Origin: Alphaproteobacteria bacterium
Lineage (GTDB): Bacteria > Pseudomonadota > Alphaproteobacteria > MPNO01 > UBA830
Direction: 5' to 3'
DNA: 64,000 nucleotides
Assembly: GCA_964291215.2 (NCBI GenBank)
Contig: OZ219790.1
Location: forward strand, 1,312,001-1,376,000
This document shows, piece after piece, positions 3,696 to 15,015 of this stretch (the first letter of the stretch is position 1; each line of letters begins with the position of its first letter). The notes below the pieces were generated by a model. The model did not search any database. It was given only the letters and a program-made list of their open reading frames with translations, and was not told the DNA's origin. The translations under genes and the position numbers were made by a program.

Positions 3696-4112
3696 TCAGC
3701 GGTCGAACAGAAACTCGCCGAGAATACGCTCGCTGATCTGCCAGAGCGGATATGTCGCTTCGTCGATTTGCAGGTCGCATTCCTGCCGTTCGGGGTTCCA
3801 TTGCGGAACGATCGTCAAATGCAGCTTCCCCGAGCGGCAGGCGGTAATGGCTTCATCCGACCGCCGGACGACGACCACATCCTTGCCGTCGTCGGCATCC
3901 ACTTCGTGTGTGCCACGATAGTCCTTCACCAACTCGATGCGGCGGACGACCAGTTCGCCGTCCGCAAACGCAGCCCGAAACTCATGGCTGCCTCTCTTGT
4001 GCGCCGGGAGCCGGTTGAACTCGGCTACATCGTCCTTCACCCGCTTGATGATGGAGTTGAGGCAATCGTCAACGGAGCAGTTCGCCCGTGCCGTCACCCA
4101 CCCGGCTCTCAT
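3696..4112 (-). CDS. Hypothetical protein translationally coupled to the IS1595 transposase
   Basis: 138-aa ORF; ATGA overlap with the transposase stop. Confidence 0.75.
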   Translation of the reverse strand: MRAGWVTARANCSVDDCLNSIIKRVKDDVAEFNRLPAHKRGSHEFRAAFADGELVVRRIELVKDYRGTHEVDADDGKDVVVVRRSDEAITACRSGKLHLTIVPQWNPERQECDLQIDEATYPLWQISERILGEFLFDR

Positions 4113-5107
4113 GCGACTGGCCTTGCGCCGGACGGCAGGCCCTTGTCTGCGATGAGGTCCTGATACCGCAGCCGCTTGCCTCTCATGCCGGCGGCGGTGC
4201 GCCCCATCATGTCCTCGGTGTCCAGGGGCCGGATGTTGTGCCGGCCCGCCGCCTCGGCAACATAGAGGTCGAGATGCTTCTCGCTGAACTTGTGGAAGGT
4301 CCCGACAAAGCTGCGCTTGAGGCCTGCCCAGAAGCTCTCCATGCCATTCGTTGAGGCCATGCCCCGCACGAACTCCTTGGCCGAGTGCTTCACCGCCTCG
4401 TGGGCATATTCGGGCATTCCAGCGTAGGCAGGCGCTTCATCGGTATAGAGGGTCGCGCCGGGCGCTACGTGCTCCCGCACGAAGGACTGGAGCGCGCTGG
4501 CGTCGGTTCCCTCCATGCGGCGAGCGGCTACCTGGTTCGTGTCCCGGTCCTTCACGCCCGCCACGGCGGCTTTCCCAACCGTCCCGCGTCCGGCACCAGC
4601 CTCCGCCAGTGCCTTGCGCTTCGCGTTCGACATGTTCTTACGCTTTCCGCCGATGAAAGTTTCGTCGGCTTCTGCGGGGCCGAGAAACATCGGAACCTCT
4701 CCGTTTTCCAGCGCCTTGCGGAGCCGGTGCGCCAGATGCCACGCGCTCTTCTGCGTAATCTCCAGCTCACGATGCAAGCGCATGGACGAAACGCCCTTGA
4801 GGTTCGTCATGACGAGGTAGAGCGCAATCGCCCAATCCCGGTAGCCGAGCTTCGAGCCCTCCATGACCGAGCCGGTCCTCAGGCTGAACTGCGGCCGCTT
4901 CGGGCAGGACCGGCAGCGGTGCGTCATCGTCTTGTGCCCGATCGGGTGCTGCACATCGTAGGACCCGCAGTGCGGGCAGAACGGACCCTCCGGCCACATG
5001 TGCGACTCGAACCACTCCCGCGCCTTCTCGTCGTCCGGGAACATGGTCATCAGCCGCTTCACGCTGATGCCCTTGCGGAACGCTTTGCCGGGTGCCTTTT
5101 TGACCAT
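4109..5107 (-). CDS. IS1595-family DDE transposase (intact)
   Basis: Zn ribbon CPHC..CRSC, HTH (VSSMRLHRELEITQKSAW), EADETFIGG, LYTDE, TNGMESFW. Confidence 0.95.
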   Translation of the reverse strand: MVKKAPGKAFRKGISVKRLMTMFPDDEKAREWFESHMWPEGPFCPHCGSYDVQHPIGHKTMTHRCRSCPKRPQFSLRTGSVMEGSKLGYRDWAIALYLVMTNLKGVSSMRLHRELEITQKSAWHLAHRLRKALENGEVPMFLGPAEADETFIGGKRKNMSNAKRKALAEAGAGRGTVGKAAVAGVKDRDTNQVAARRMEGTDASALQSFVREHVAPGATLYTDEAPAYAGMPEYAHEAVKHSAKEFVRGMASTNGMESFWAGLKRSFVGTFHKFSEKHLDLYVAEAAGRHNIRPLDTEDMMGRTAAGMRGKRLRYQDLIADKGLPSGARPVA

Positions 5108-5145
5108 CGGAACAACCTCTTATGGCGTGTTTCGCCCTATCCTCA

Positions 5146-5174
5146 TCATGGCGGATTACGCCCGGTGCGTCAAG
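5146..5174 (-). promoter_or_regulatory. Sigma70-like promoter for the IS1595 transposase
   Basis: TTGACG-N17-CATGAT on the - strand; -35 lies at the inner edge of the TIR. Confidence 0.5.
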
Positions 5175-6089
5175 GAAAAATGGGAGTTTGGTATATAATT
5201 TCCTTTCCAACCAGGAAACTTGGATGCTTGTCGCTGGCCACGAGGGCGCCCAGTTCGGCCTCGGCGGTTTGGAGTGAGGAGGCGTGGCTCCGAGCTGTTT
5301 TCCGATACGTTTCCTGATGTCGTTGTTCGGTGCACGGCGTTTTGCGCCAGGTGGAACTGGCAGCGCTGCCACATCGCCGCACCTTGCACCGCGCGTCGTG
5401 CCGCTTTCAGCCCGGCATCCGAAACGATGAAGGTCGTACCATGCAGGGCCTGCAAGCTTTCCAGGAAGGCTCTCCAATGGACCTCGGCCTCGGAGAGCGC
5501 CACAGAGAGCCCCAGAACATGCCTGCAGCCCCTGTTCCGATGGCCGAGAGCACTGCGACATCGCGCACAACGCCGTCATGGCAGGCTTTTTCATGGCGCG
5601 CATCTAGGTATTTCATCAGGGGCCGGTTGCGCGGCGAGTTCTTCGTCGAGCAACCTGGTGGCCCGGCTGACCTGAGAAGAGGACAGGCTCCCGAACTCGC
5701 GCATTACATCCTGCCGTGTGGAAACACCCTTGATGTACATCTCGGCTACGGCGCGAGAAGATCGCTGGCCGCGTTCAAGCGACTGGGGGGTCATCCCCGT
5801 GACCGTTTGGCACCTGAACGGTAACAGTGGGGGTGTCGATCCGCTTGTAGCCGTTGGCATAGCCCTGTCGCTCCGGTGGCCCGCTTTCAAGTACTGCTCG
5901 CGCTCGATTTGCATCGCAAGCTCGAAGAGCTGACCAAAGACCCGCCCCAGATCCGTTGCTCCGTTTGCGATCAGATGTTCCAAAACAGTCCCGATCGTCG
6001 TAGTGTGTCGCAGGTCCATTCGCTTCCTCCATGAAGGTTTTCCAACTCCATGGGATGGCACGATGGCGCCGCGTTTCACTGGGGGGCTA

Positions 6090-7343
6090 GTAGTCTGGCA
6101 TTATTGGATTGAGGGATATAGTGACTTCAGTTTCGTCCGGGCATCCTTCGTCGTGAAACGCCAGTCGACAGTGACATCGGCCGCATTGCGGCGCTCGACC
6201 CACGCCACGGTCTCCCGCAGCATGGTGTCGCGGTCGGGAATGCGTCGCCGAAGGCATTGCCGCGACAGCGCGCCGCTCTCGATCTCGGCCATGTTGAGCC
6301 AGCTTCCATGCTTCGGCGTATAGCGAAACTCGAACCGCTTTCGTACCCGCCTCCTCGGGCTCGAAGGCTTCATACAGTGACTGTGCGTGTTCAGATTGTC
6401 CAGCACGATCTTCCTGTCGGGGAAATGGTCGTCGGCAAGCTCCCGGATGAAGTGCGCCCAGTCCCGCGGCGGTCGGTGACTTTCACCGTGCGCCAGTTCT
6501 CGTTGGGCGCAAAGGCCATGAAGAGGTTGGCCGTACCGTTGCGCTCATATTCATAGTCGACCACCTCCGGCTGACCGGGAGACGGGGGATGCGGGTTTCC
6601 TGCTGCCGGCTGGTTTCATCCATGCACACCAGCACCTCGTCCCTGGCAAAGTCCCGCTGATAAATGTCAAGCACATCCTCCATCGCCGCCACGAACTGTG
6701 CGCTCCGGTGCGGTGGAATGCACCAGTACTGCTTCAGCCACGGCTTGATCTCCTTTTTTTTAGCGTCTTCCTGACCGTCTCTTCCGAAATGCGCTCGACG
6801 ATCTCCATCTCCACCAGACGGCCGGCGAGCAGCTTCAGCGTCCAGCGGGCACAGCCCTCGGGCGGGGATGAGCAGGGCGACCAGCTTCGCCTCCATCGCC
6901 CCCGTTTCGGCCGACGGTTCACCTGCTCCTTGCGGCTGAGGGCGGCGTCCAGCCCCTCCAGGACGCAGCGCAAGCGCTCAATCGTCGCCGTGCCGATGCC
7001 CAGCGCAATGTCGGCATCGACAAGCGCCCCCTCAGCATCAGGACCTGTGCCCGGCGCCAGGCGGCCCCGGTGCCGTCGACGATCGCCTTCAAATCCTGGC
7101 GCTCCTGCGTTGAAAGGGTCACGCGGTAGAGCTTCCTGCCCCGAGAGTTGGCCATATGCGCCGCTCCTGTCATTGCGCCGAAGACCTGCGGGCATGCCCG
7201 TTGTCCGGACCTGCACATGGGGCTGCGGCTGCCTGCCTGTTCGGCATCTGCCCGTGTGGATATCGGCACTGTCCGGATTCCAACGAATGCCGACACGGAA
7301 ATACTACCCACAAAAAACCATCAATACAATGCCGGTGGACTAC
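6090..7343 (-). mobile_element. IS630-family element, degraded
   Basis: TA duplication (6088-89, 7344-45); motifs VCMDET, LDNLNTH, YTPKHGSWLNMAEIE; A-run frameshift site ~6753. Confidence 0.9.
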
Positions 7344-7514
7344 TAGCCCCCCAGTGAAACGCCTCAAAGCGCAAACCTCAGACAAATTTCCAGACATCAA
7401 GTTACAGTACCGACATGGGGACATCCTCCCCCTCACCCTCATCTCCTGACCTCGGCTTTGATTTCTTCCAATCAGGGTGCAGTTCGTAGATCATGCGGAG
7501 GCCGGTTCGGAGCT

Positions 7515-8149
7515 TGAGGAAGGCATCCTGAGGAGCCACAGGCTCAAGATCGCCGAACATCGTGCCGATCCTGGCCAGCGCGTCGACGCGGTTGGCCAGA
7601 TGGCCCATCGCCTCGGCGAAGCGCCGGGCCCGCAGCGGGCAAGACAACCTCGAAGCCCCGATCATGAAGACACTGGTAAACCCTGCGGTGATAGCGGCCT
7701 GTCGCCTCCATCACCACACGGGTCACCTCGAGGCTGCGAAGCCACGTGCCCGCCAGCTCGTGGCGTCGTTCGCAAAACAATGCGCCAGATGTTCAGACTG
7801 GCCTTGCTGACATCGATCCCTGCTATTACCTTGACCATCGTCCCTTGCTCCTCGTCTCATGATGATTCGGTTCCAAACCTAGGCATCCATTCAGGACACG
7901 AGGGACGCTAGGGGAGGTTGGCCGACCAAGCTTGCGCACGGCTCTGCAAGGCCAAGACGGAAACGGTCCGACCAACCTCCGCGGAGATCGTTTGATCCCC
8001 GCTCCCCTGTGCGTGTTCGCGCAGGGGAGCGGAATCTCTCTGTAACCATGGACCGGACGCTCTCCCACAGTCAGGGTTGTCCACATTTTCCCGTCCCCGA
8101 CCGCTGTGGATGATTTCATCATCAAGGGGATAAAACCTGATCATATAAG
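7515..8149 (-). mobile_element. IS110-family copy 1 (left end with bridge-RNA-like region plus 5' part of the recombinase; truncated)
   Basis: DEDD N-terminal motifs VVMEATGRYH, ARRFAEAMGHLA(K)..RVDA; ~310-nt structured left end homologous to 13190-13451. Confidence 0.85.
7835..8140 (-). ncRNA. Putative IS110 bridge RNA (copy 1)
   Basis: Hairpin CCGCTCCCCTG/CAGGGGAGCGG; stem GGAGGTTGGTCG/CGGCCAACCTCC enclosing a variable loop; segment ATGGATGC matches the element right end seen in copy 2. Confidence 0.65.
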
Positions 8150-8810
8150 ACGGCGACGCTGATCACCCGGTGCTGCGGCGCAGACCACATCTTCCCGGTC
8201 AAAGGCAATGCGCTCGAAACCTTCGACATCCTCGACGGCATCGACCGGGAGACGGATGCCAGCGGCCGCTTCAGGGAGGCAAGGCCCACGGACGCCTCGA
8301 GCAGCGCTCGATACGTGCCGCTCGAGGACCTGATCAACTACCCCGGCGTCAGAGCCGGATCGCCCGCATCAAGCGCTACCGCAAGCCGCCGGGAAAGAGC
8401 GCCAGCGGCGCAGCGAGCGGCAACGACTGCACCGGTACATCATCACCTCGCTCAATGCGCAACACGCGTCGCCAGAGGAACTGCTGCGGCTCGGTCGCGG
8501 GCACCGGGCCGTGGAAAGCATGAACCACCGCCAGAGAGACTGCGTCTTCGGCGAGGACGCCTGCCTGACCCGCAAACCGCGCCAGCCTCGACAACATCGC
8601 GCTCGCGGTGATCTTCGCCAACCGACGCGAGAGCCTCGCCGAAACACGGCTGCAGCTCGACCGCCGGGAAGCCGTCGCAGCCCGGCCCTGAGCGCCAATG
8701 GTGTCCGGCCGATTCCCGGGCGCCGCCCACAACCCGCCCACGCGCCGATAACGCCGCCGCCGGCGACCGCGGACGGCCCCGAAGCCAGAAAACCCGGCAC
8801 GCCGTGAAAC
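8150..8810 (+). pseudogene. ISAs1-family transposase remnant
   Basis: Fragments VKGNA, KAHGRLEQRSIR, RGHRAVESMNHRQRDCVFGEDAC. Confidence 0.8.
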
Positions 8811-8989
8811 TTCCGGACAGCAGAAGACAGCAAAATTGAATGCAGCGTAGGAAAGACCTAGCTTCTACGGTCCGGCCCACCAAGAGATAGCCGGCGTGCT
8901 CAGGGACGACCGGGAGGAGGTCAACCTGCTCGCCGGTTTCGGTGCCAGTACTAACCCGTCCGCCGGGCCGGGAGCGCGCGGGAAGCGGC

Positions 8990-11455
8990 TCAGAAGGCGT
9001 GGCGCCAGCCTGCGAGGATGCTGAGTTCGGCGGCGGCGGCGGCGTCGTGGCCGGGCTGCCGGCTCCAGCCTGCGCCCAGGCGCAATTCGCCGCCATTGTC
9101 GAGCGACCGGCGCCACTCGGCGGCGATGTCGATCTGCCGGCCCAAGGGTTCGAGGTCCGCGGCCATCGACCGGCGCAGGACCCGTCCGTCCCCAGTGCGG
9201 CCGACCGGAACCGAAAGCCGGGCCCAGCCGGCCTCGACGCGCAGGGGCTGGCCCACCGAGAAGGTGAGCGCATCCCGGCCGCCCAGCGCCCGTTGCGCTC
9301 GCAGCGCGAAGGCGCTGGTAACCAGCGGCGACACGTCAGCGAGCATCCCGCCGTGCGTTGCTGTCCTGACGGTGCCGATTTCCGCGTCGGCGCCCAGACG
9401 CCAGGCGCCGGCGCGGAACCCACTCTCGAGGCCGGCGAAGACAGACTGGCCTGCAATCCGTCCGAAGGCACCGCTGGCAGTACTGCCGAGCAAGGTCCGG
9501 CGCTCGGCCACCATGCCGCCTGTGAGGGCGAAGGGCTGTTCCGGGGGCTGCCATGTCAGGGCCGCGCCCGACGCCGGGGGCCGGCTGCGCACCCCTTCGG
9601 TGGAAAAGGCGGTGACGGCGAACCCGTGCGCGCCCGGCACATCCACCGCGAGGCCCGACCCGGCGAGCGCGAGGTGTCCACCACCGCGGAAAGGCGCCGC
9701 GTCCAGAAGGCCCGGGCGGAAGGAGGTGCCCGCCGCATAGGCGCCGCCGATCAGCGGGACGAGGCCGGGCTGCAGGGTTCCGAAAGTCCGGCCGGTCCGT
9801 TGCGGCGCCATGAAGGCGTGCAGCCGGGCGGCGAGGCCGGGGCCGGCCCCTTCGGCAACGAAGTCGCCCAGGGAGAACCAGAACGGCGCCCCCAGCGTGT
9901 CGAACGCCACGACCTCCCTGCCGCCGGAGAGCGCCTGCGCCAACCCGTTGCCCAGCGCGCCGCCGGGGACAAGGCCGGTTTCCGTCACAGGGCTGCCGGG
10001 GCTGTCGATGCGGTCACCCAGAGTGAGCATAGTGGCGCCGACCGGCGCCGTCGCGGCACCCAGGTCCATCAGCCCCTGGCCGTAGATGCTGCTGTCGGCG
10101 TAGATGCCCTGCTTGTTGGCCGTCGCCATCAGCCGGGAGACCAGTTCCGTGTTGGTCATCTGGCCGCGGAAGACATGCTTCATCACGATAAGCCCGCCGG
10201 TCACGAACGGCGCGGCAGCGGAAGTGCCCCTGACATAGGCGGCAACCCCTCGCGTGCCGGGGCCGCTGCCGGAAACAGGGCGGCAATTGGGATTGGATCC
10301 GCAGGGAGGGCCGAAATAGGCCGCCCTGATTGCGTCCCCGGGCGCCGCGATGCACCACTCGGCCGCGATACCGCAACGGTTGGAGAAGTCGGCGATTTCA
10401 TGTTCGCCGTCGCCGTCGTCGTCGGGCGCCACGGCAGCGGCGCCGATCACGTGGCCGCGCAGCTCGGGGAAGTGCACCGGCAGGCCGGGAAGGATCTTGA
10501 CCGACCGGGCATTGACGCGGGCTTGCAATGCGCCCCCCGTGCAAAGGTCGGGATTGTCGGTGAAGTTCGCCGGGTCGCAGGGGGCATTGTGGGCGTTGCC
10601 GGCCGAGAACACGAAGACGGTTTTGTCGGCCGCGCCGGCCTGCGCCAGCGCGGTGATCGTCTGGCGCAGGTTGCGGCGCAGTTCCTGTTTGCCGTACTGC
10701 TCGATCATTCCCTCCGGACCCCAGCTCGCATTGACGAAATCGATCTTCCGCCCATCGTGCGACCAGTCGGCGGCGCGGGCGAACAGTTGCCCCCACCCGT
10801 CTGGCCCGCGGTCGGCGGCGCGCAAGGAGGCCAGTGATGCCGGTTTGTACGGGCGGCTCCCCGATCCGAGATCGATGGCGAGCATCGCAACATCGGCGCC
10901 CGGCGCGATCCCGGGACCGGCGCCCCTGGCGACATAGGTGGTCGGCGGCCGCCCGGCGAGCACGCTCGCGACCGTCGTGCCGTGCGAGGACTCGCTGCCG
11001 TCCCCGGCGCCCGGCCCACTGACGATGCTCTCCCTCACCGTCTTGCCGGCAAACATTGGGTGGCTGGTATCAATACCGTCGTCGATCAGCCCGGCGGTGT
11101 AGCCGGAGCCCGCCTCGACGCCGACGCCGTGCGCCAATTCGACCTGCGCCCAGGCCCGGTCCGCGCGGACCGCGGTCAGCCCCCACTGTTCTCTGAAGTC
11201 TGCCCGGTCGGCATGGCGCGCCGCAAGGATCTGGCGTTGTTGCCGATAGTCCTGCGTGGAGAGGCACCCGAAACCCGCCGTCGGAATGATGTCTTCGAGC
11301 GCGCAAGGGTCCGGCGGCGATAACGGTGACTGCGGTGGCTCTCCTGTGCCTCCGCCACCGCACGCCGAAACGAGCAGGGCCGAGACGAGGCACAGCGCGG
11401 CCGCACCAGTCACGCGGGAAAACCAGAACCGGTAGAGTTCGAGCAAGCGCCTCAT
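8990..11455 (-). CDS. S8 (subtilisin-like) serine peptidase, lipoprotein with C-terminal beta-barrel-like domain
   Basis: Lipobox LVSAC; catalytic motifs LIDDGID, SHGTTVA, GTSAAAP; YGQGLMD; C-terminal W-x-x-x-F. Confidence 0.9.
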   Translation of the reverse strand: MRRLLELYRFWFSRVTGAAALCLVSALLVSACGGGGTGEPPQSPLSPPDPCALEDIIPTAGFGCLSTQDYRQQRQILAARHADRADFREQWGLTAVRADRAWAQVELAHGVGVEAGSGYTAGLIDDGIDTSHPMFAGKTVRESIVSGPGAGDGSESSHGTTVASVLAGRPPTTYVARGAGPGIAPGADVAMLAIDLGSGSRPYKPASLASLRAADRGPDGWGQLFARAADWSHDGRKIDFVNASWGPEGMIEQYGKQELRRNLRQTITALAQAGAADKTVFVFSAGNAHNAPCDPANFTDNPDLCTGGALQARVNARSVKILPGLPVHFPELRGHVIGAAAVAPDDDGDGEHEIADFSNRCGIAAEWCIAAPGDAIRAAYFGPPCGSNPNCRPVSGSGPGTRGVAAYVRGTSAAAPFVTGGLIVMKHVFRGQMTNTELVSRLMATANKQGIYADSSIYGQGLMDLGAATAPVGATMLTLGDRIDSPGSPVTETGLVPGGALGNGLAQALSGGREVVAFDTLGAPFWFSLGDFVAEGAGPGLAARLHAFMAPQRTGRTFGTLQPGLVPLIGGAYAAGTSFRPGLLDAAPFRGGGHLALAGSGLAVDVPGAHGFAVTAFSTEGVRSRPPASGAALTWQPPEQPFALTGGMVAERRTLLGSTASGAFGRIAGQSVFAGLESGFRAGAWRLGADAEIGTVRTATHGGMLADVSPLVTSAFALRAQRALGGRDALTFSVGQPLRVEAGWARLSVPVGRTGDGRVLRRSMAADLEPLGRQIDIAAEWRRSLDNGGELRLGAGWSRQPGHDAAAAAELSILAGWRHAF

Positions 11456-11596
11456 ATCGCCCTCTATTCACCCGCCCCTGTCCGCCTAGGCAGAATCGAC
11501 ATTCATCACATCCACACGATAGCAGAAGTGATCAGTATGAAGGCCAAGAAGTATATTGCGTGACTATTCGGTTATCACATACACCAAGTTAACGCC

Positions 11597-11703
11597 ATGA
11601 ACGAATTCAAGTCTTGGAACAGCTACTGGAACTTTGCCAACCGAGTACGGTACGAGACCCGCCACATTCAAGCATCCGAGGATGACGATTTCCCAAGGTG
11701 ATC
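11597..11703 (+). pseudogene. 5' stub of a lower-GC gene (resembles RES-domain protein N-termini), cut by ISAs1
   Basis: MNEFKSWNSYWNFANRVRYETRHIQASEDDDF, ending at the IS boundary. Confidence 0.4.
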
Positions 11704-12145
11704 CCATGCTTGTTGATGTGATGTTATCGGAGTCCTGATCGCGGCGCGGGTCGACGCGTTCGAGGCTGCGATTTTGAGATTTGCTGACGCGCTGTTGCGG
11801 CGCGGGGCGCGATTGGTCGGCGTATCCGGGGCGAGCGAGAGGCCTTGGTTGTCGGGCTCGAAAGCTTGCGGTTTCTGTCGGGCAGAGGGGCGCGGTCAGC
11901 CTGGTCTTGTGATTGCGTGCAGGACCTGCTTGCGCTTGTCCGCATGGTGGGAAGCTGTTGAAGGGTTGGGCAGCTTGCGCTTGTTGTGGATGATGATTGC
12001 GAGGGTGATCGCGTTGTTTGCGGGCGCGTTCGGAGCATGGAGTCGTCTTCGCGGAAGGTGGCGTCGCGGACATGATGATGGCTCTCGACTACCCAGTGTC
12101 CGCGATTCCATGCGAGCAACTGTTGCGGCGAGGCGCGCTCGACCG

Positions 12146-13451
12146 AGCATCCATGTTTCTTGGCAAGGTTTTTGCGGGTGTCTGTGGTGATGTTTTCTGT
12201 GGTTGTCCACAAGCGGTGTGGGATTTGCTCTGCGAGCGAGGCGACATGAAGCTTGTGGTCCCGGCGGCGGGTTGCCGTCCATTAGTCACGTGAACGCGGC
12301 TACCTTGCCGCCCCCGGGCATGGTAACGTGACCGTCCGGGTTCCAGGTGTCCCAAGGCGGTTCGATCTCCTCGATGTCGGCCTCGACGATGATCTGCAGA
12401 CATTCTCCCCAAGTCGTGTCGTAGTAGGGAGACTGTCGATACAGTCCCGATCGCGCTCTCGGCAGGGCCGTGTCTCCTTCGCTCACTCACCGGTACTTCA
12501 GGCAACGCTGCTGTCGCAGCAAGGTGTTCGCCAGAGCTTGCGCATCACGGCGACAATCGCGACCTTGCTTGCCGGCAGTCTTGAGGCGCACCAAGTCCGC
12601 GTTGAAGCGTGCCGGTCGCGGCCAGGAGATCACGTGGCCTTTGGCGCCCGCCACGGATGTGCCGAGCACCGTGGTCGTTGGCCATCGGCGCCACCCCGAT
12701 CAAGGCTGCCGACGCTGCCGAGTTCGGGCATCCAGAAGGGCCGCGGCGGTCACCGGATCGAGGTCAGGATGGCGTACCTCTGCTCGGGATCACCGGCGAT
12801 CACCGCTTTGATCGCCGCGCCGGCGGTCATCGAGATCGGCCGCCGAGGCCCTTGTGACGGTCTCGCCATCCACCTCATCTGCCACGCGTCGACAAGCGCG
12901 GCACCAGGAGATCCTCCAGGCTCTTGAGGAAGGCGGAGCCACAGGCTCACCGTGCCGATCCTGGCGTCGACGCGGTTGGCCCATCGCCTCGGCGAAGCGC
13001 CCGCAACGGGTTGACGAGAATAACCTCGAAGCCCCGGTCATGAAGACACTGGTAAACCTTGCGGTGATAGCGGCCTGTCGCCCGCCACCCGGCTCACCCC
13101 GAGGCCGCGAAGCCACCTGCCCGTGGCGTCGTTCGCAAAACAATGCGCCAGATGTCCAGACTGGCTGACCCCTGCTACTACCTTGACCATCGCTCCTCGC
13201 CTTGTGATGATACGGGTTCAAACCCAGGCATCCAGCGAGGGATGCCAGGGGAGGTTGCCAAACTCGGACGCGGCTCTGTCAAGGTCGAAACGGCAAACTC
13301 CGCGGAGATCGTTTGATTTCCGCTCCCCTGTGCGTGTTCGCTCAGGGGAGCGGAATCTCTCTGCAACCATAGCTCTCCCACAGATCCACATTTTCCCGCC
13401 CCCAACTGCTGTGGATGATTTCATCATCAAGGGGACAAAACCTGGTCATAT
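12146..13451 (-). mobile_element. IS110-family copy 2 (near full length, eroded)
   Basis: Recombinase fragments (RFAEAMG, ILTSI(PG), RLKTAGK..LANTLLR); right end ...TTGCCAAGAAACATGGATGCT ending in a CT core; left end homologous to copy 1. Confidence 0.82.
13190..13445 (-). ncRNA. Putative IS110 bridge RNA (copy 2)
   Basis: Same scaffold as 7835-8140 with different target-loop segments. Confidence 0.6.
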
Positions 13452-14773
13452 GGCGTGTTCGGTTTTCCTGAATTCGACGCGCCGGGTGACGCGGAAGATC
13501 TGCTTGACTAGTTGATCATCTTCGCCAACGGGTTGAAGATGATGCGCTGGCGGCCATGCGCGGGCTTTTCACTATAGCGTCCCGTGCTCGCGGTCTTCCG
13601 GTTGATGCTCTCGAAGGCGCGTTGCCCTTGACCATCAGTCCGCGCGATGGATCTCGACGATCAGCCTCGCGGGTGGTGTGGAGCGCGTCGAGGGTGAGCA
13701 GACGGCCGATGCCGTCGCGGCGTGGACGGCAGCGATCTCCCCGCCGTGACAGTTGAGGACCGAATACCGGCCAGCGAGGCCGTCTCGTAATGATCCTCGC
13801 CGGTGCGGCCGCGCTTGCCGTCGACCGCGTTGCCGACCTGCGGCTGCGCGCCGCATCCTCGATCCATCCCGGGTCGGTAGCACCCGGTGCACGGTGGAGG
13901 CCGGCTTGTCCCTGTTCTTCCACGCTGCTTCAGATCCTTCTGCGTCATCGCGTAGTGCGCCGCCGCGCCGGTTCGCAAGCCGCGCCATCACGCACAGCAC
14001 CGAGGCGATGCCCCTGCGCGCGCCGGAAAGCGCCCCGAAGTGCTGATAAATCGAGCGCAACTCCTGCGCCGACCAGCGGCGCCCGCAACTCCCACGCCGC
14101 AGGAAGCGGCGAACGATCCCGCGTCACGACGCAGCGGAAACACGTAAGGATCCTTCGCCTCCCCGTGCCGGTCGGTATAGCGCCCGCTGGCGCGCGCATG
14201 GCCCCTGCCAACGCACTCCCGGTTCGCCGCCTTGTACATGGCGCCGCTGAACTTCGTCGGCGAGACAAACTTCTACACAACAAGCAACGGATGGCGCGGC
14301 CTCCCATTCGCCGCCGCACCATCCGCGACAACGCAAACGAGGCCCGGAAACACTCGGCGACCACCAGAAACAACAAACCTCGTGTTGTTCCCGGCAACCG
14401 CCTGAACCGTTCCTCGCGGCGCCAGCCAATCCAACGGTCCCGCGGCCGAGGGTGCCCGTCTGCCAGCCCGCAGCGCCAATCCACCGCCCGCGCCAGGTGA
14501 ACACGCAGCGCAGACCTCGACCGGCAAACTGCTTGAAACCAAGATGGTGATGACCGTCAACGACACGATTCCAGCGGCATCAGGCCGCGCAAGGTGCACA
14601 ACCACATCCCGGAGCGCAAAACCCTCCAGAGTCGTCTCAAAAAAAATCCGCTGTCTCCACGACAACGGATACTGCGCCGCTTCACAAAAAGCCAGCGAAA
14701 ATGCGAATCATCTTGAACAAGCGAAACCGACCCTTCCAACAAACTTGGCGTGGGATCATCGTGTGACCGATTG

Positions 14774-14969
14774 CACGACCATCCCATACTCTAATTCGGA
14801 GACGCGAAATCCGAATGCGTTGGGGCCCGGCTCATCACAGATCGCCTCCTTGATCGCAATTTTCGTGCCAAGAAGGCCCCATCGAGCCTTGACGGCACGG
14901 TTGCAGCGCGACGCAAACTGAGAAAATCTCGCCAGTCGTCGCCAGATTAGCAACGTGGGATCGTCGTGG
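14774..14969. mobile_element. MITE copy 1 (~196 bp)
   Basis: Imperfect TIRs CACGACCATCCCA / TGGGATCGTCGTGG; 8-bp TSD ACCGATTG (14766-73, 14970-77); similar to 37983-38176. Confidence 0.8.
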
Positions 14970-14986
14970 ACCGATTGTGCCAACTG

Positions 14987-15015
14987 TTGCAATCCGATTC
15001 GACTCCGCTTATGCT
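14987..15015 (+). promoter_or_regulatory. Sigma70-like promoter of tRNA-Glu
   Basis: TTGCAA-N17-TATGCT, 11 bp upstream of the tRNA. Confidence 0.55.

Follow-up and report, generated by a model that had tools for sequence, protein, structure and literature searches.

In IS621, a DEDD plus serine recombinase works with an RNA from the left end of the element, in which a target-binding loop is followed by a donor-binding loop, and insertion takes place at a CT core (PMC11208160; PMC11208158; PDB 8wt6). Its left guides read as the top strand and its right guides as the complement, the right donor guide is interrupted, a promoter forms at the circle junction, and a handshake letter is present, pairing after strand exchange (PMC11208158). 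Guiding in trans works for IS621, and guide variation among distant orthologues is already in print (PMC11208160). In this study, we followed up a sequence-only reading of a 64,000-nt stretch of an Alphaproteobacteria genome (the window; contig OZ219790.1, positions 1,312,001 to 1,376,000), which had described two IS110 copies as a naturally reprogrammed bridge-RNA pair. The protein, core, loop order and guide layout of IS621, including the interrupted right donor guide, recur in the family to which the copies belong, together with a predicted junction promoter and a candidate handshake letter. Very likely, they are decayed IS110-group elements with a predicted bridge RNA in the left end, and their family was retargeted repeatedly through small changes in the target guides, with donor guides staying nearly fixed. 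The mechanism class, that of an IS621-type bridge recombinase, is known; the guide radiation is the unusual part.

The family nonetheless differs from IS621 in several respects. Its left end is about 315 nt long, with two 5' hairpins and with loops that begin some 175 nt away from the core; its informative target comprises 4-5 letters, CT and 5-6 letters, the first two guide letters being fixed; a long right end holds a 96-aa passenger gene; DnaA-box-like motifs are present; the targets are other insertion sequences, where IS621 uses REP elements; and 20 guide combinations occur in one genome. ISCro4/IS622 (10.1101/2025.05.14.653916; PDB 9t56) shares the architecture, the CT core, 14-base recognition and handshake guides, but its protein is distant (E=5e-24 to L034, an intact relative of the present elements), and the passages of that source that were covered describe neither a passenger gene nor a within-genome guide radiation. 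IS1111 has the same catalytic domains and carries sub-terminal inverted repeats of 7 to 17 bp, a repeat of 5 to 7 bp being visible here, yet its RNA lies in the right end, whereas here both loops are in the left end and the long right end holds a gene. Cargo-bearing IS110 elements (10.64898/2026.08.14.744561) likewise have additional coding sequence in the stretch that separates the recombinase from the right end; here it is one small conserved gene without a family name, common to IS21, IS66 and IS3 elements. The literature covered (titles and abstracts, most subscription papers and the Durrant supplement falling outside its scope) contained nothing on within-genome guide radiation, on ISAs1 as a target of IS110, or on IS110 ends with DnaA boxes. 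Natural retargeting of the guide, in recombinases that serve as genome-editing tools, is unaddressed in that literature.

Searching the 6.15-Mb genome by BLAST with the element ends yielded 68 matches for the left end and 71 for the right; 65 left ends (alignment at least 160 nt) were retained, and guides were parsed in 64 of them, one being truncated. None of the 65 elements has an intact recombinase frame of this IS110 family, the copies carry a median of about 30 short deletions relative to L034, and the family is probably without activity in this assembly. The two window copies are ordinary members of this set, rather than the special pair they had been taken for. A scan at the protein level found 28 loci, spread over eight other Alphaproteobacteria genomes, and of these we used the 20 loci, in six genomes, that have a readable left end, dropping 8 for want of one; the gene is intact in three of the relative genomes. 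A DNA search of 40 related genomes gave two matches of 37-38 nt and nothing else. The protein of L034 reaches 202.6 bits on NF033542, above the cut-off of 140, and all five of its catalytic motifs (D9, E51, D93, D96, S232) line up with those of IS621 (E=2e-28); at the DNA level, L034 is 92% identical to copy 1 over 639 aligned positions and 92% identical to copy 2 over 979. Empty host copies consist of left flank, single CT and right flank, a layout seen at 14 of 14 example sites (picked as CT-bearing), and at L015, a locus present once, a contig of 9.9 kb from run X3 omits the element exactly, with a 2-letter ambiguity, run X2 having both junctions. The element therefore ends at the CT core, where the sequence-only reading had placed the ends, and it has the short core, the one core at the empty site and the lack of terminal inverted repeats that mark IS110. 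Across the genome, 42 of the 65 left junctions are intact and start with CT, and 66 of 71 right-end matches end in ATGGATG-CT.

The evidence that carries retargeting is covariation between guides and flanks, assessed with one unit per flank family and guides permuted 20,000 times. Within this genome, left guides gave 76 matches of 126 (null 57.8, n=18) and right guides 75 of 96 (null 54.6, n=16); in the six other genomes the figures were 68 of 112 (null 52.8, n=16) and 81 of 96 (null 38.7, n=16), and no shuffle equalled any of the four. Reduced to one unit per allele, the left guides matched at 3.62 of 5 positions against 2.23 (17 alleles) and the right guides at 4.69 of 6 against 2.61 (16 alleles). 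The variable target guide thus follows the insertion sites across the family, beyond shuffling, as had been claimed from two short matches. Those matches gain support from the family-wide pattern; by themselves they were weak and too short for the claim, and they concerned segments that do not correspond: for copy 1 the left target guide, for copy 2 the right one. By position, the left guide copies 4 to 5 bases ahead of the core (27, 28, 23 and 34 of 34 matches at -4 to -1) and the right guide complements 5 to 6 bases after it (31, 30, 26, 25 and 29 of 32 at +1 to +5). Matches are weaker at -7 (8/34), -6 (9/34), -5 (15/34) and +6 (15/32). The first two guide letters are TT in every intact loop, and the flank is never copied there. 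Recognition is weighted to the right, covering 4-5 letters, CT and 5-6 letters, which bears on guide design. Some guide of the genome's pool reaches at least 9 of 11 at 16 of 19 reconstructed sites, compared with 34 of 5000 random CT sites. As a separate observation, the left guide ending CCCT in relatives L049-L054 and L060 seems to serve different insertion sites in two registers that are offset by one base.

Leaving out core letters, the genome holds 11 left-guide and 11 right-guide alleles in 20 combinations; single-substitution links connect all 11 left alleles and 8 of the 11 right alleles. On a tree that recombination has blurred, guide columns took 7.7 parsimony steps and the 153 four-fold sites 2.3 (p=2e-6), a ratio of about 3.4, and among six outside elements (15 pairs) guide divergence was 0.45 to 0.82 where four-fold divergence was 0.11 to 0.36. 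One clade holds all four combinations of two left and two right guides, in 12, 9, 6 and 5 copies, so either guides were swapped among copies or copies were moved by another copy's RNA. The 19 parsed copies at landing site A (sites are lettered here) share a derived junction deletion but carry seven guide combinations, which points to exchange following insertion. Half-match recombination has been reported (10.64898/2026.08.31.748434).

In the fold computed for the predicted bridge RNA, two 5' hairpins are followed by a target stem that encloses an internal loop and then by a donor stem (z = -4.8 and -5.6 in the left ends folded). Over 12 hand-picked sequences, 96.8% of cells in this structure pair, against 39 to 47% in slid controls, and 6 of 47 pairs are changed on both sides, mostly in the target stem and once in the donor stem. 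An Rfam scan of window positions 5000-15000 gave no match. The left donor guide equals the right end of the element; a G as fourth letter of the left end goes with C in the right donor guide in 20 of 20 cases, an A in 3 of 40, counts that are inflated because the copies are related. At the candidate handshake position, 56 of 60 cases combine G in the donor loop with C at target -1; the two targets with T (copy 1 and L048) carry A, and two others have A with C. The features of the two window copies are as follows.

7513..8149, minus strand: IS110 copy 1, retaining its left end, the bridge-RNA region and the 5' portion of its recombinase gene; right end lost, sibling alignments ending at 7513
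8148..8149, minus strand: copy 1 CT core at the left junction; a single CT stands at the same place in empty host copies
8150..8156, minus strand: copy 1 left target flank, site L, TCGCCGT
8140..8145, minus strand: copy 1 -10-like hexamer of the predicted circle-junction promoter, a function suggested by IS621
8077..8113, minus strand: copy 1, two putative DnaA-box-like 9-mers (8105-8113, 8077-8085) at fixed left-end places
7981..8032, minus strand: copy 1 predicted bridge RNA, two 5' hairpins (ends approximate)
7913..7980, minus strand: copy 1 target-binding loop; 3 pairs of the outer stem changed on both sides in 12 sequences
7955..7963, minus strand: copy 1 left target guide TTTCCGT-CT, matching own flank and core at 7/9; no other copy in the genome has this allele
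7931..7938, minus strand: copy 1 right target guide TGCGCA-AG, predicting CT-TGCGCA
7850..7903, minus strand: copy 1 donor-binding loop (left donor guide 7882-7890, right donor guide 7856-7865, handshake letters 7854-7855)
7513..7838, minus strand: copy 1 broken recombinase gene (PF01548 at 7547-7780, E=4.3e-5, below cut-off)
8150..8840, plus strand: copy 1 ISAs1-type host remnant (end approximate), including empty site E at 8447; its homologous copy L011 matches NF033564, E=5.6e-14
12146..13451, minus strand: IS110 copy 2, full span, decayed; left junction lacks 8 nt including the core
13282..13290, minus strand: copy 2 left target guide TTTCGAC-CT, a closer fit to site B than to site A, where it lies
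13263..13270, minus strand: copy 2 right target guide CGTCCG-AG, 7/8 to own right flank, mismatch at +4
13195..13243, minus strand: copy 2 donor-binding loop (outer ends approximate; left donor guide 13227-13234, shortened by deletion; right donor guide 13201-13210)
12487..13190, minus strand: copy 2 broken recombinase gene
12345..12475, minus strand: copy 2 remnant of the 96-aa passenger gene (ends approximate); the open reading frame at 12286-12486 resembles the intact one of L034 and L041
12146..12172, minus strand: copy 2 right end, with left-donor sequence plus CT core (12146-12154) and -35-like hexamer (12161-12166)
12140..12145, minus strand: copy 2 right target flank, site A, CGGTCG
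11640..12145, minus strand: copy 2 host, ISAs1-type, 3' part (outer end approximate; 5' part resumes from 13452); NF033564 at 11727-12212, E=2.3e-5

All six strings quoted in the sequence-only reading lie at their coordinates on the minus strand, joining the copy 2 right end to the copy 1 left end does give TTGCCA-N17-TATGAT, and the assignment to the IS110 group, the CT core, the left-end bridge RNA and the common donor guide are all borne out by the sequence. That each guide matches its own flank holds for copy 1, whose guide pair is unique in the genome and agrees with its own site at 9 of 11 informative positions, the best of the 20 combinations there. It does not hold as well for copy 2, whose guides score 8 of 11 at their own site A but 10 of 11 at site B; for the site of copy 2, the best fit (10/11) comes from a combination carried by 9 other copies. 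Nor is it so that a single flank survives per copy: the left flank of copy 2 persists apart from an 8-nt deletion that took the core, as siblings with an unbroken junction reveal, and the right flank that copy 1 lost is legible in empty host copies. The latter allowed a blind test of the copy 1 right guide. The empty hosts read CT-TGCGCG at three places and CT-TGGGCG at one, and the predicted CT-TGCGCA agrees with CT-TGCGCG at 7/8 plus a U-G wobble; in most other copies of this host the landing site has gone through deletion. Both hosts are ISAs1-type, as proposed, with NF033564 matches below the curated cut-off, and their stretches in the window lack mutual BLASTN similarity at E<1e-3. Copy 2 has 35 deletions relative to L034 over left end and recombinase gene, and 5 to 8 nt are missing at four places in its loops. 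A decayed IS630-like element with 45-nt inverted ends (6071-7362) adjoins the truncation of copy 1.

By analogy with IS621, an excised circle would assemble a promoter at its junction (cf. PMC13626964); the RNA would bind the recombinase, and its loops would pair with target and donor, leading to insertion. Point changes in the guide would open new multi-copy landing sites, and variants that gained harmless sites would spread; later recombination, gene conversion or the RNA of another copy would uncouple guides from sites, as in copy 2. The promoter itself, as earlier proposed, is predicted from hexamers 17 nt apart in the joined ends. No circle junction occurs among the joints listed for the contigs of three runs, and contigs lose rare forms, hence this is uninformative either way.

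Could the guide differences have arisen without retargeting? They might be neutral decay after the death of the elements, the flank matches then reflecting common ancestry of a few host-plus-element units, and the roughly 30 deletions per copy, the few single-copy alleles without a fitting site and the flanks shared by many copies would all be expected. Yet covariation survives collapse to flank families or alleles and recurs in six other genomes, three of them with intact genes; decay is unable to make the unique guide of copy 1 spell a flank already lost, and it does not account for guide columns that outpace four-fold sites (7.7 against 2.3 steps). We regard this account as extremely improbable. 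It is also very unlikely that elements inserted at near-matches and then had the loop rewritten from the new flank. Unique guides at unique sites (copy 1; the copy at C2:1147578) and fast guide divergence are what such rewriting would leave, but the alleles form a single-substitution network and not block replacements, the leading TT is never copied from a flank, and relatives hold one guide across 5 to 7 imperfect sites (L041-44 with L058; L049-54 with L060). A narrower question is whether copy 2 landed by its own guide, as a two-mismatch off-target, in which case the earlier wording would be right for both copies. Its 8/11 is far from chance (with the best of 20 guides, at least 8 is attained by 193 of 5000 random CT sites), 12 of the 19 parsed copies at site A deviate in some way from the best-fitting left or right variant, and IS621 has documented off-targets that carry one or two mismatches (PMC11208160). 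Against this stand the seven guide combinations at the shared deletion of site A, which point to exchange after insertion, and the poor tolerance of IS621 for double mismatches (PMC11208160); we think a landing by its own guide possible but doubtful.

Repeated retargeting of the family, which we favour, has evidence against it too. The RNA and the circle are predictions from sequence, and matches at -7 and -6 are no better than chance, whereas IS621 favours a match at each of the nine non-core positions (PMC11208160). A number of resident guides are a poor fit to their own site, the best combination being present in only 6 of the 19 parsed site-A copies, and at 3 of 19 sites no pool guide exceeds 8/11. 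Among 23 single-step allele pairs, both flanks track the change in 11, one flank in 11 and none in 1, and some agreements are coincidental. Finally, the copies are akin and many were amplified passively as host-plus-element units, so that the units compared are only partly independent.

Repeated sequence makes up about 33% of the genome, yet flanks are multi-copy at 15 of 18 distinct sites (variants of site B merged). Sites B, M, D, L and E all fall within a single host, that of copy 1, at spacings of about 300 bp; this host combines a DruA-like domain with an ISAs1 transposase and is present in 33 to 43 copies. Other sites lie in IS66, ISNCY, IS1634-like and second ISAs1-type elements, or beside an IS630-like gene; the hosts of sites C, I and O gave no direct family match. 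An assignment of site M to IS256 was dropped, the site mapping within the ISAs1-type host. The preference for multi-copy sites also fits selection against gene disruption or passive amplification, and intent to target mobile DNA is unsupported because both favour the same sites. That selected single-letter guide changes, together with left/right recombination, carried one IS110 family across insertion sequences in an adaptive walk, including five positions in one ISAs1-type host, is a proposal to which we give an even chance. If true, the 20 guide pairs and 19 sites are a natural library for guide reprogramming and mismatch tolerance. Near-identical copies with legible sites, and intact relatives of 92% identity, make direct testing possible.

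The passenger gene (L041:2811-3101) encodes an all-helical protein of 96 aa, of which the window retains a remnant at about 12345-12475 on the minus strand. The protein has no Pfam, NCBIfam or PDB fold match, and its Atlas matches are unnamed clusters. It has 763 homologues. In metagenome loci, the upstream gene is of transposase type in 48 of the 65 frames scanned (IstB 20, IS110 18, IS66 TnpB 5, IS3 2, others 3). After this gene, the right end of L034 (3109-3373) shows a 130-bp tandem duplication in which one 12-bp palindrome occurs four times, possibly as binding sites. The ends also carry 9-mers at 8105-8113, 8077-8085, 13410-13418 and 12203-12211, at fixed places, about +37 and +65 within the left end and -66 within the right, which resemble DnaA boxes and would flank the predicted junction promoter. 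Two or three such 9-mers occur in all 8 relatives examined (L034, L038-L041, L048, L049, L062), against a genome background of 0.089 per kb at one mismatch. They may link the process to the replication cycle of the host. The subterminal inverted repeat is 7 bp in the window (8132-8138, 12166-12172) and shorter in several relatives (5 to 7 bp, read by eye).

Erosion by short deletions affects all copies in the genome (e.g. 12146-13451), with a peak at 5 to 7 nt and many deletions common to several copies; microhomology at them is a weak signal (12 of 74 with at least 3 letters, about 4.6 expected). Other elements have hit the first AT-rich bases of several left ends, destroying the junction (C1:1521529, C1:1705007, C1:2485190, C2:178908, C2:686701 and others). 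Flanks from different sites imply deletions or rearrangements between copies at C2:3385611, C2:2862756, C2:845873 and C2:1488756, the first of which fuses sites D and B of one host. Two intact IS110 frames of another family lie outside these copies, at C1:480856 and C1:884303 (429 and 431 aa). Neighbours with open frames in the window include an 821-aa S8 protease (8990-11455) and an IS1595 transposase (4109-5107).

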